Of a stretch of 64,000 nucleotides of DNA, positions 6,974-13,769 are shown one piece after another. The DNA comes from Candidatus Omnitrophota bacterium. Its GTDB lineage: Bacteria; Omnitrophota; Omnitrophia; Omnitrophales; JACQLI01. The position numbers and the translations under genes were made by a program. The notes under the pieces are model-generated. The model saw only the letters and a program-made list of their open reading frames with translations. It did not search any database and was not told the origin of the DNA. Location of the stretch: assembly GCA_016179745.1 (NCBI GenBank), contig JACPCP010000016.1, forward strand, positions 10,819 to 74,818, in the 5' to 3' direction. Position 1 is the first letter of the stretch. Each line of letters opens with the position of its first letter.

Positions 6974-7001
6974 TTGCTATTTCAACGGTTTCCTTTATAA
7001 T
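6974..7001 (+). promoter_or_regulatory. Sigma-70-like promoter for tRNA-fMet (TTGCTA, 16 nt, TATAAT)
   Basis: -35 at 6974-6979 and -10 at 6996-7001, about 30 nt upstream of the tRNA 5' end. Confidence 0.4.
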
Positions 7002-7032: not shown

Positions 7033-7360
7033 CGCGGGGTGGAGCAGTCCGGTAGCTCGTTGGGCTCAAGGCTGGGCGTCCCGGCAGCAATGCCGGGGAA
7101 GATCACCTGTCAAATTCGGGGAAGCCTTCCGCGAAGGTAATCCCGAGCCAAGCTTGAGCACTCAGGTGCTCGAGAAGGTGTAGAGACTTGACGGCAGGCA
7201 CCCGACACCGTTAGTTTTAACGGAAGGGTGAAGAGAAAGTCCAGACTACAAATTCGTTCTGCCATCTACGGAAATTTCGTGTTGAAGGCGGAACGGAGCA
7301 GCGAAAGCTGAAGTAGTATGCATAACCCAAAGGTCGTTGGTTCAAATCCAACCCCCGCTA
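7033..7360 (+). tRNA. Initiator tRNA-fMet (CAU), interrupted in the anticodon loop by an intron
   Basis: Exon 1 (7033-7066) and exon 2 (7321-7360) join to a 74-nt cloverleaf. It has a C1/U72 mismatch, GGG/CCC in the anticodon stem, and near-identity in design to E. coli tRNA-fMet. CCA is not encoded. Confidence 0.85.
7067..7320 (+). ncRNA. Group I intron (IC3-like, no ORF), 254 nt
   Basis: It follows an exon U and ends in G. A GNRA-capped hairpin lies at 7080-7097. The core strings GUCAAAUUCGG, GAGCCAAGCUU and GAAGGUGUAGAGACUUGACGGCA resemble the P3-P7 core of the Azoarcus and cyanobacterial tRNA introns as I recall them. Confidence 0.8.
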
Positions 7361-7370
7361 AATACGACAA

Positions 7371-7406
7371 CCGGAGGCAGGGCACAAATCCTGCCTCCGG
7401 TTTTTT
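7371..7406 (+). terminator. Rho-independent terminator after tRNA-fMet
   Basis: 11-bp stem CCGGAGGCAGG/CCTGCCTCCGG, 8-nt loop, then TTTTTT. Confidence 0.7.
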
Positions 7407-7518
7407 AAAGATCAGGGTTGCAGGCGTTCTTCCAAAAAGAGGTTCGTCCCGCAGAAAAATCGGATAACCCCAAGAACCATTTGGGCCGATTGCGGCTGAC
7501 AAGCCGTAGACACGATTC

Positions 7519-7697: not shown

Positions 7698-8729
7698 ATG
7701 CACCCAAACAATTCCTTACTCGCTTTCTTTCTCCTGGCTTTTTCGGTTTCAACTCCCGCCTTTCCGGCCCCGACTACGGTTTCCGAGATTCAAACCTACG
7801 ACGAGCTCTTGCACGCCATTCGTGAAGTCCGAACCGCCAGCCAGAAGCGGATCGACCAGGCGATCAATCAAGAGAAAGTCCGTGAGGCCTGGGAGACGGG
7901 CAAGCTGATCGACGAACACGTGCTTCATCATAAAGAGCGGGCCGATTATGGAGAATACGTGCTCCTCAGGCTCTCAAGCGATCTGGGCAGGAGCCAAACA
8001 GAACTTCGCTTTATGCTCTTATTTGCCCGGGCCTACCCAATTTATCCGGCGCCGAATGAATTGACCTGGGCCCACTATAGGGAATTGCTTTCTATTCATA
8101 ATGAGGCCCAGCGAAAGGAAATCGCCGAACGGGCTGTAAGGGAAAAATGGGGCCATAAGCGGATCCGGGAAGAAGCACGCAGGCTCCAAGCATCAGAGGG
8201 ATTGGCGGAAGAAAAGACGGCGACGCCCGGGAAGCCGGGCGCTTACCGTGTGGTGGTGGCGGTGGACGGTCCTTATAAAAGAGAGCTGGCCCTGGACCTC
8301 GGCTTTTCAAGCTTCTTCCGTCCGGAAAAATTCGGCAGGTTTAAGCCCGGGGAGATTGTCACGCTGGAGAAGGGAAAGGTTAAGAAGAATCACCGGGAGT
8401 TCGCCGGGAAAGACCTTTTCACCTACCGGGCTTACGTGAGGCACATAGTCGACGGCGATACCTTTTATGCATTGATTGATCTCGGGTTTGGATTCACCAC
8501 GACTCAGAAACTCCGTCTGCGGGGCCTCGACGCCCCCGAAATCGAAACCGCCGAAGGCCGGGAGGCCAAAGAGTTTCTCACCACCCTCCTTGCGAGGCCC
8601 TTTCCCATTCTTATCCGCACCGTCAAATCCGACAAATACGACCGCTACTTGGCTGATGTCTGGGTGGACGAGACCTACGTCAACCAGGAACTCATCGCTC
8701 ACTCCCTCGCCGTCCAAGTCAGCGAATGA
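7698..8729 (+). CDS. Fusion protein: signal-peptide-like N-terminus, DUF1016_N (YhcG N-terminal) domain and a staphylococcal-nuclease (SNase/thermonuclease) domain
   Basis: The N-terminus is LLAFFLLAFSVSTPAFPAP. The middle region YGEYVLLRLSSDLGRSQTELRFMLLFARAYP...LTWAHYRELL fits DUF1016_N. The C-terminus IVDGDTFYA...LRLRGLDAPE...KYDRYLADV is the SNase motif set. Confidence 0.7.
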   Translation: MHPNNSLLAFFLLAFSVSTPAFPAPTTVSEIQTYDELLHAIREVRTASQKRIDQAINQEKVREAWETGKLIDEHVLHHKERADYGEYVLLRLSSDLGRSQTELRFMLLFARAYPIYPAPNELTWAHYRELLSIHNEAQRKEIAERAVREKWGHKRIREEARRLQASEGLAEEKTATPGKPGAYRVVVAVDGPYKRELALDLGFSSFFRPEKFGRFKPGEIVTLEKGKVKKNHREFAGKDLFTYRAYVRHIVDGDTFYALIDLGFGFTTTQKLRLRGLDAPEIETAEGREAKEFLTTLLARPFPILIRTVKSDKYDRYLADVWVDETYVNQELIAHSLAVQVSE

Positions 8730-12525: not shown

Positions 12526-12598
12526 GCCGGCGTAGCTCAGTTGGTAGAGCAGGGGACTCATAAGCCCCGCGTCGGGGGTTCGATTCCCTCCGCCGGCA
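12526..12598 (+). tRNA. tRNA with CAU anticodon (elongator Met most likely; Ile2-lysidine not excluded)
   Basis: 73-nt cloverleaf: GCCGGCG acceptor, CTCATAA anticodon loop, T-arm GGGGG-TTCGATT-CCCTC. CCA is not encoded. An A31/G39 mismatch is noted. Confidence 0.85.
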
Positions 12599-12621
12599 CT
12601 GTATTCTTTTAAGAAATAATT

Positions 12622-12758: not shown

Positions 12759-13769
12759 ATGCAAGCCTTACTCTCCCGAGTCGAAGCGGCCTCCGCCAAA
12801 TATCAAATGTTCAAACCGGGCGAGCGGGTCCTCGTGGCCTGTTCCGGCGGAGCAGATTCCGTTGCCCTGTTTCATCTTTTGAAAATCCTCTGCCCCCGCT
12901 TTAAAATTCGGCTCGCCCTTCTTCATTACGACCACGCCCTCCGCCCGGCGAGCTCCAGGGATTTTCAGTTTGTCAAAGTGCTTGCCCGGAAAACAAAGAC
13001 CCCTTTTTACGGTGGCGTGAGAGACCCGGAAAAAGGGATTCTGCGAAAAGGGCTTTCTCCCGAAGAGGCGGCCCGCAGCCTGCGATACGATTTTTTTAAA
13101 TCCGTCTGCCAAAAAACCGGGATCTCAAAAATTGCCCTGGGCCACCACCGGGATGACCAGGCCGAGACCGTGCTGATGCGGATCCTCCAGGGCACCGGCC
13201 CCCGGGGGCTCCAGGGGATCCGCCCTGTAGTCAAACTGAAAGGGATGACCCTGGTCCGGCCGCTCGTGGAAATCAGCCGCCAAGAGATTCGGGAAAGCTT
13301 GAGACGGAACCGTATCCGTTTCCGGGAAGACCGCTCCAACCGGTCCCGGAAATTTTTGAGGAACCGGATCCGTCAAAGGCTTCTTCCTTTGCTGGAAAAG
13401 GAGTTTAATCCCAAAATTCGCCAGTCCCTGTGCCGGCTGGCCGAAACCACAATGAGGGAATCAGCGGGTCTGGACGATTGGACCCGGCAGCACGGAAAAA
13501 GTTTCGTCCGCTTCCGGCGAAACGGGATCCTGACCCTGGCCCGAACCCCCTTCCTTTCCCTTCCGAGCGCCCTTCAGTTCCGGGTTCTCGACCGGCTCGT
13601 GCGTCTCCTTCACCCGGCGAGCGGGCTCAGTTTCGACGCCTGGAGCCGGATTGAACAGGGACTCGGTCGGGGCCGCTTTCGAACCACCCTTCCCCAGAGA
13701 CTGGATTTGATTCTCACCCCGAAAAAACTCACGATTTCCCGAACGTTTGCCGGTCGTGGGCGAAAATGA
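12759..13769 (+). CDS. tilS: tRNA(Ile)-lysidine synthase
   Basis: PP-loop VLVACSGGADSVAL, HHRDDQAETVLMR motif, tilS-ftsH synteny. Confidence 0.9.
   Translation: MQALLSRVEAASAKYQMFKPGERVLVACSGGADSVALFHLLKILCPRFKIRLALLHYDHALRPASSRDFQFVKVLARKTKTPFYGGVRDPEKGILRKGLSPEEAARSLRYDFFKSVCQKTGISKIALGHHRDDQAETVLMRILQGTGPRGLQGIRPVVKLKGMTLVRPLVEISRQEIRESLRRNRIRFREDRSNRSRKFLRNRIRQRLLPLLEKEFNPKIRQSLCRLAETTMRESAGLDDWTRQHGKSFVRFRRNGILTLARTPFLSLPSALQFRVLDRLVRLLHPASGLSFDAWSRIEQGLGRGRFRTTLPQRLDLILTPKKLTISRTFAGRGRK

Follow-up and report, generated by a model that had tools for sequence, protein, structure and literature searches.

An initiator tRNA gene interrupted in its anticodon loop

The stretch of DNA analysed here (64,000 nucleotides, hereafter the window) carries on its + strand an initiator tRNA gene whose two exons are separated by a group I intron. 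The features of the locus are as follows.

6974..7001, + strand: sigma-70-like promoter candidate, TTGCTA-16 nt-TATAAT; a consensus match with putative function
7033..7066, + strand: 5' exon of tRNA-fMet, tRNA positions 1-33, from ARAGORN and junction inspection; its 3' end, U33, is the -1 uridine of the 5' splice site
7067..7320, + strand: group I intron, 254 nt, bacterial tRNA IC3 type, class fMet.2Ug, without an ORF; from Rfam RF00028, the structure model and covariation
7321..7360, + strand: 3' exon of tRNA-fMet, positions 34-73, with anticodon CAU, the CCC strand of the anticodon stem, the T arm and discriminator A73
7369..7408, + strand: intrinsic terminator, a 13-bp G+C-rich hairpin followed by TTTTTT, from sequence inspection

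Joining the two exons (7033-7066, 34 nt, and 7321-7360, 40 nt) yields the 74-nt tRNA proposed in the initial annotation, and ARAGORN identifies the spliced 74-nt sequence as tRNA-Met(cat); CCA is not encoded. The initiator hallmarks listed in that annotation can be read directly from the joined sequence: C1 is unpaired with position 72 (C1·U72 here, compared with C·A in E. coli), and the anticodon stem contains the three G-C pairs G29-C41, G30-C40 and G31-C39. In addition, A11:U24 is present and the T-loop reads UUCAAAU. The combination of C1·U72, G29-31:C39-41 and A11:U24 provides the initiator host that characterizes class fMet.2Ug. The exons also carry the variants U27-U28/A42-A43 and U72, the latter being shared with several related intron-split genes, and the 5' half of the tRNA is nearly identical in about 20 other intron-split initiator tRNA genes among the matches listed (see below). 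The other CAU tRNA of the window (12526-12599, + strand) is not an initiator, since its G1 and C72 are paired and the three G-C pairs are absent. In this second tRNA, which may be an elongator tRNA-Met or the TilS substrate tRNA-Ile2, the lowest pair of the anticodon stem is replaced by an A31xG39 mismatch; the gene lies directly upstream of tilS (12759-13769, + strand), a member of the PP-loop family.

The promoter candidate matches the consensus at 10 of 12 positions (two such sites in the region, with 0.5 expected), its 3' end lies 32 nt upstream of tRNA position 1, and together with the terminator it encloses the split tRNA gene alone. Within the intron itself (7067-7320), no + strand ORF of more than 33 aa begins, in agreement with the earlier statement that a homing-endonuclease ORF is absent; the sole ORF of more than 60 aa overlapping the intron is on the minus strand, a frame of 114 aa extending across the tRNA 3' exon and the terminator. 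The homing-endonuclease ORF expected of a mobile group I intron was not found in 7067-7320. Having no endonuclease gene, the intron at present probably does not move and is passed on together with its host tRNA gene.

The splice junction and a shortened P1

The junction reads ...GGGCU|CAAGG...UAUG|CAUAACCC, the intron being preceded by U7066 and ending in G7320. Only the U33|C34 register combines a -1 U with a terminal ωG, which bears out the U|...G| choice made earlier, and the intron is thereby inserted after position 2 of the anticodon loop (U33), as in class fMet.2Ug. For comparison, we aligned 27 introns located at U33|C34 of CAU tRNAs, namely that of the window and 26 homologues, using MAFFT (alignment A1). 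In all 27 aligned introns the last base is G and is followed by CAUAA, and the splice-site pair is U·G in 25/27.

In the relatives, a guide element, (A/G)UGGGCUG, lies just 5' of P2. Its GGCU pairs with exon GGCU, creating the U33·G wobble, while the preceding UG of the guide pairs either with intron C1-A2 (P1 extension) or with exon C34-A35 (P10). The P1 register of the window intron was set by homology to this conserved guide (UGGGCUG in the relatives), with the following result.

7064-7068 with 7073-7077, + strand: P1, exon G31-C32-U33 and intron C1-A2 on guide U-G-G-G-C; loop AGGC; wobble U7066·G7075
C7321-A7322 (exon) with U7073-G7074, + strand: P10 alternative, register by homology to relatives

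The P1 U-G pair that the initial annotation had suggested looking for is thus present as U7066·G7075. Because the guide nucleotides U7073-G7074 are shared between the P1 extension and P10, CA occurs at both intron boundaries, and this accounts for the junction ambiguity that had been pointed out. The guide of the window reads UGGGCGU, compared with UGGGCUG in the family, and the G30·U pair is lost. P1 is unusually short, with three pairs formed by exon and two by intron nucleotides under a tetraloop, and P10 comprises only two pairs. When each register is evaluated together with P2, the one adopted here gives -20.8 kcal/mol, compared with -17.2 kcal/mol for a 4-bp alternative, GGCU/GGCU (7063-7066 with 7070-7073); both place the splice site after U7066.

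A different junction is returned by ARAGORN in intron mode, which recovers 7033-7360 with a 254-nt intron but moves the junction by 3 nt and calls tRNA-Leu(caa). We consider it wholly improbable that the locus is a tRNA-Leu(CAA) gene with exon 1 extending to 7069 and an intron at 7070-7323, and rejected this junction, since the intron would then be preceded by A, end in U and lack the U·G wobble. Moreover, the C1 mismatch, the three G-C pairs and A11:U24 mark the body of the tRNA as that of an initiator, and the long variable arm of a tRNA-Leu is absent. The program shifts cyanobacterial fMet introns in the same manner, e.g., that of Trichodesmium (L095), and its junction ambiguity for split tRNAs has been described (Williams, bioRxiv 2020).

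Secondary structure of the intron

The structure of the window intron was modelled by hand, with the family alignment as a guide and using only standard pairs. The helices are listed below together with their pairing, and with the pairs changed on both sides, across the aligned introns.

7079-7086 with 7091-7098, + strand: P2 hairpin, 8 bp; GNRA loop GCAA at 7087-7090; present in the MFE structure
7106-7111 with 7193-7198, + strand: P3, enclosing the P4-P6 domain; 99.4% paired, 4 doubly changed pairs
7116-7121 with 7141-7146, + strand: P4; P4/P5 87.5% paired
7124-7129 with 7133-7138, + strand: P5; P4/P5 87.5% paired
7147-7149 with 7177-7179, + strand: P6; invariant in A1
7153-7161 with 7166-7174, + strand: P6a; 9/9 pairs changed on both sides
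7185-7189 with 7237-7241, plus G7183-C7242, with bulged A7184, + strand: P7 pseudoknot helix, enclosing P8 and P8a; 100% paired
7199-7203 with 7226-7230, + strand: P8; 97.7% paired, 5/5 pairs doubly changed
7208-7213 with 7218-7223, + strand: P8a; from the model
7245-7249 with 7313-7317, + strand: P9, closing a three-way junction; 90% paired (ACCAC/GUGGU versus ACUAC/GUAGU)
7253-7263 with 7287-7297, inner stem 7267-7270 with 7278-7281, + strand: P9a; 11/11 P9a pairs doubly changed
7299-7302 with 7307-7310, + strand: P9b, GAAA loop; 100% paired, 4 doubly changed pairs
G7320, + strand: terminal ωG; P9 domain 7245..7320

The folding check proposed in the initial annotation thus yields a complete canonical P1-P9 fold with standard pairs throughout. 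Thermodynamic folding alone gives P2-P6a, P8, P8a and the P9 domain, and the intron region folds at -111.3 kcal/mol, compared with -84.0 ± 4.9 kcal/mol for shuffled sequences (z=-5.6), with none of the 200 shuffles folding as well. The GNRA hairpin noted earlier at 7080-7097 reads CCCGGCA-GCAA-UGCCGGG and lies within P2, and the three core strings quoted alongside it start at 7109, 7145 and 7174. In P7, the pair G7185-C7241 is the putative guanosine-binding site, which we take to correspond to the G130-C177 guanosine site of the Azoarcus intron. One pair of P7 is variable (A1 columns 166/253), occurring as UA in 13, AU in 7, GC in 5 and CG in 2 introns.

Beyond P1, P2 and P3-P9, the model contains only the extensions P6a, P8a and P9a/b, and the loops L2 and L9b are GCAA and GAAA, respectively. 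These are the features of an IC3 intron; the IC3 definition that goes back to Michel and Westhof (1990) reportedly comprises a compact core with P2, no P2.1/P5abc/P7.1/7.2, GNRA loops on L2 and L9, and kinship with IC3 introns. Three local peculiarities set the window intron apart from its family: it lacks the 20-120-nt P1 extension hairpin carried by nearly all relatives examined, its L2 loop is GCAA, and its P9a (an 11-bp stem plus the inner stem) is the longest in the set.

Across the fMet intron family, the type of L2 loop tracks the shape of P8. GAAA loops occur with a receptor-like internal loop, CCUAAC...GAGG, and GUAA or GUGA loops go with an uninterrupted P8 helix, while the window intron (L2 GCAA, 7087-7090) has a P8 internal loop of its own (7199-7230), closest to that of L092. 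An L2-P8 tetraloop-receptor contact is known from the Azoarcus intron, and the L2/P8 covariation would fit such a tertiary contact here, as the Azoarcus contact would predict.

Detection by covariance model and support from covariation

A local search with the Rfam Intron_gpI model (RF00028) aligns 7057-7258 to the full model (1-253) with 48.0 bits and E=3.1e-11, an E-value that is decisive statistically; the alignment ends at 7258, inside the P9 domain. The Rfam gathering cut-off for this model is 50 bits, 2 bits above the window intron. Because 48.0 bits is below this cut-off, a whole-window Rfam scan at the gathering threshold makes no call at the split gene and reports six ordinary tRNAs only. 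Eight homologues of the intron in other genomes reach 49.3-66 bits, and the window intron scores lowest of the nine; the family straddles the cut-off, and the window intron lies at its low end. Default ARAGORN on the whole window likewise does not call the split tRNA gene, and tRNAscan-SE is documented as not designed for such genes. Given these limits of default ARAGORN, the Rfam cut-off and tRNAscan-SE, automatic annotation could report a genome without an initiator tRNA, a known failure mode.

Alignment A1 probes the modelled helices through compensatory change. Standard pairs occupy 83.9% of cells, compared with 72.4 ± 0.6% in shuffled alignments and 32-45% when the partners are slid by 1-3 columns. 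Changes on both sides are seen in 58/83 pairs (42.1 ± 2.6 when shuffled), and the covariation score is 0.291, compared with 0.134 after shuffling; none of 500 shuffles reaches any of the three measures. In this alignment, covariation supports each of the elements that characterize a group I intron: the pseudoknot P3/P7, and domains P4-P6 and P3-P9. The P2 columns are only 37-55% paired in A1 because MAFFT misaligns stems of variable length; in every individual sequence P2 is a clean GNRA hairpin, with GAAA, GUAA or GUGA loops in the relatives. With the Rfam match (E=3.1e-11), the P1-P9 model and covariation on 26 homologues, the initial description of a 254-nt, ORF-less, IC3-like group I intron holds.

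Conservation can also be followed in the opposite direction, from the family to the window. Where the other 26 introns are invariant, the window intron agrees with them in every column (66/66), and it does so too in every column conserved at 90% or more (81/81). Since every invariant column is matched, the ribozyme core looks intact, and nothing in the sequence suggests decay of the catalytic core.

Relatives and phylogenetic spread

The core pattern CAAATTCGG...GAGCCAA...AGGTKYAGAGACT has one match in the window, compared with 0 expected by chance. A scan of a genome collection with this pattern yielded at least 120 loci over many phyla, which ARAGORN in intron mode and junction inspection identify as tRNA genes split in the anticodon loop. 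Among the matches listed are about 40 tRNA-Leu(UAA), about 30 CAU tRNAs, 10 tRNA-Arg and assorted other calls, part of them tRNA-Leu(UAA) genes whose junction ARAGORN had shifted. Among these matches, the pattern retrieved introns of classes Leu.3Ug, Arg.5Ug, Ile2.5Ug and fMet.2Ug, all marked IC3 in the group I intron database. The intron lies exactly at U33|C34 of a CAU tRNA in 27 of the loci listed, about 20 of which are initiator-type.

L024, L046, L052, L069: Nitrospirales/Nitrospirae
L029, L033, L074: Omnitrophota
L093: Planctomycetia MAG
L036, L053, L081, L095 (Trichodesmium erythraeum IMS101), L104: cyanobacteria
L056: Actinomycetota MAG
L012, L034, L061: Patescibacteria and Saccharibacteria
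L108, L118, L122: Bacteroidota and Rhodothermales
L047: proteobacterial MAG

By this one genome scan, class fMet.2Ug is present in at least eight phyla. The initial annotation had described the distribution of such introns as patchy and had taken the present case as bearing on intron spread; this needs tempering, as fMet.2Ug is a classical class and occurs in at least eight phyla. Among the matches listed, none is close to the window intron: the highest identity is 73% when the intron is taken whole and 79% when only well-aligned columns are counted.

The gene order eno-ftsB-tRNAfMet(intron) is common to the window, the Omnitrophota MAG locus L074 and the Planctomycetia MAG locus L093, whose enolases are 64% and 59% identical to that of the window, respectively. 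Despite this shared gene order, the introns of L074 and L093 fall into a different cluster from that of the window in a rough NJ tree, which could reflect fast divergence or intron replacement at a shared locus.

A related intron also occurs at U33|C34 in elongator/Ile2-type CAU tRNAs, which have a paired 1:72 and no GGG/CCC stem (L020, L031, L035, L037, L092 and L094; hosts in Acidobacteriota, Chloroflexota, Saccharibacteria and Accumulibacter). These are distinct from the classical Ile2.5Ug class, inserted after U36 (L010, L059, L066, L075, L080 and L101), and are probably among the newer classes of Williams (bioRxiv 2020).

Assembly context and the neighbouring ORF

Five Logan contigs that carry the upstream ftsB (L001-L005) all end at window position 7060, 6 nt before the intron, and those on the downstream side (L126-L131) start near position 8624, inside the ORF at 7698-8729. 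The organism is represented in runs SRR12113390-SRR12113433. In exact-protein look-ups, no Logan contig of the same organism spans the intron, and two scans of JGI metagenomes, one with the junction and one with the upstream flank plus exon, gave no matches; these look-ups and scans of Logan and JGI therefore yielded neither a second assembly of the intron nor an intron-less allele. The common end point fits an assembly graph that branches inside the conserved 5' half of the tRNA, with a second similar tRNA-fMet, from another species or another gene copy, in the samples. A presence/absence polymorphism of the intron was considered for the break at 7060 and rejected, because an intron-less allele would diverge at 7069, not at 7061.

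That no independent contig crosses the junctions would be expected if the insert were an assembly artefact, i.e., a chimeric join of a foreign group I intron into a tRNA gene. The insert, however, sits exactly at the class-specific U33|C34 site with a -1 U and ωG, carries an internal guide complementary to this very exon, and has homologues at the same initiator tRNA site in at least 20 independent genomes. Such exact agreement of site, guide and homologues is not what a chimera would give, and we regard an artefact as barely conceivable.

The same contig ends bear on the possibility that the gene is a decaying, splicing-dead pseudogene copy, with a second, intron-less initiator tRNA elsewhere in the genome doing the work. 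Such a copy would be in line with P1 and P10 pairings weaker than those of the relatives and with the lowest Rfam score of the nine introns tested; only 64 kb of the genome is visible, and the branching of all Logan contigs at 7060, in the tRNA 5' half, would fit a second similar tRNA-fMet in the sample. Yet this branch is explained equally well by the near-identical tRNA-fMet of another species, and the intron keeps every family position (66/66 invariant and 81/81 near-invariant) and has every helix intact, with compensatory changes. The exons join into a faultless initiator tRNA, whose gene has a promoter-like site and a terminator to itself, and, as to the short P1, a 3-bp exon part suffices in the Azoarcus intron. 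On balance, we judge a dead copy very unlikely and proceed with a functional split gene as the preferred reading.

The ORF at 7698-8729 (+ strand), 340 nt downstream of the split tRNA gene, encodes an unusual fusion of DUF1016_N and SNase (staphylococcal-nuclease) domains, and an exact-protein look-up of its product returned no record. We asked whether it could be a free-standing homing endonuclease and discarded the idea, since tblastn against the other intron loci listed (at least 120) gave no homologue; the ORF thus seems unconnected with the intron. It may instead be the trace of a mobile or defence insertion beside the tRNA gene.

Discussion

Taken together, our data make it very probable that the split gene works as a monocistronic initiator tRNA gene and that the 254-nt IC3 group I intron of class fMet.2Ug lying between its U33 and C34 is self-splicing. 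From the anatomy, family membership, structural conservation and covariation documented above, we infer that the intron would remove itself from the transcript.

As a plausible pathway, the gene would be transcribed from the sigma-70-like promoter, the transcript ending at the intrinsic terminator, and the intron would fold into its P3-P9 core. Exon G31-C32-U33 and intron C1-A2 would pair with the guide at 7073-7077 to form P1, placing U33 in the U·G wobble, and a free guanosine or GTP bound at the P7 G-C pair would attack the bond after U7066. In the second step, ωG7320 would take the same P7 site, while the guide nucleotides U7073-G7074 would switch to exon C34-A35 (P10). The 3'-OH of U33 could then attack after G7320, ligating the exons and recreating the anticodon loop CUCAUAA, and RNase P, 3' trimming and CCA addition would complete the tRNA.

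A more far-reaching reading holds that the split gene is the only initiator gene of a non-cyanobacterial, PVC/Omnitrophota-like lineage and has been vertically kept (the gene order around it recurs in L074 and L093), that all initiation hinges on a guanosine-dependent ribozyme, and that the minimized P1 is adaptive rather than a sign of decay; we consider this unlikely. If the gene were indeed the sole initiator gene, the ribozyme could act as a checkpoint linking the supply of initiator tRNA to the guanosine nucleotide pool. That an initiator gene can depend on self-splicing is in itself already documented, as the tRNAscan-SE 2.0 paper lists 36 genomes that seemingly miss tRNA-fMet or tRNA-Ile2 owing to such introns. 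With its pared-down P1 and enlarged P9, the intron is a naturally occurring variant that could be of interest to ribozyme engineers.

Comparison with known tRNA introns

Four classical classes of bacterial tRNA introns are recognized, Leu.3Ug, Arg.5Ug, fMet.2Ug and Ile2.5Ug, all of type IC3, and 5,292 split tRNA genes have been found in about 80,000 genomes (Williams, bioRxiv 2020). Introns of the tRNA-fMet class were first reported from cyanobacteria, where they were shown to self-splice (Biniszkiewicz, Cesnaviciene & Shub 1994, as cited in later work). Cyanobacterial fMet.2Ug IC3 introns (Biniszkiewicz, Cesnaviciene & Shub 1994; Paquin et al. 1997) include those of Synechocystis PCC 6803, Gloeobacter, Trichodesmium (L095) and Oscillatoria (L036). 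They share with the window intron the initiator tRNA host, the U33|C34 site, the -1 U, ωG and the P1-P9 helices, as well as the conserved strings CAAAUUCGG, GAGCCAAG, AAGGUGUAGAGACU, AGUCCAGAC and GCAGCGAAAGCUG, with a core identity of 70-75%. In contrast to them, the window intron has no P1 extension hairpin, carries the guide UGGGCGU and a GCAA rather than GAAA L2 loop, and differs in the P8 internal loop and in a P9a enlarged to an 11-bp stem plus inner stem. The 655-nt intron of Synechocystis PCC 6803 encodes I-Ssp6803I, whereas that of the window has no ORF and resides in a non-cyanobacterial host.

The intron in the tRNA-Ile(CAU) gene of Azoarcus sp. BH72 (Ile2.5Ug, IC3), a structural model for small bacterial group I introns, resembles that of the window in its compact architecture, in the short, 3-bp exon part of P1 and in the GNRA loops on L2 and L9; its J3/4-P4, P6 and J6/7-P7-P3' segments are presumably almost identical to those of the window. 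It differs in being inserted after U36 rather than U33 of an Ile2/CAU elongator-type tRNA, in its length of about 205 nt and in a simple P9 hairpin. The beta-proteobacterial loci L010, L059 and L075, among others from the same scan, belong to this Ile2.5Ug class. Introns of tRNA-Leu(UAA), the largest group with about 40 among the matches listed, likewise place an IC3 core in a tRNA anticodon loop, but are inserted after U34, within the anticodon, of a different tRNA and form separate clusters.

By every defining feature, as read from its sequence, the window intron is of class fMet.2Ug and a further example of this known class. It adds a non-cyanobacterial member, and how the class is spread across phyla matters for the question of an ancient origin or lateral transfer of tRNA introns.
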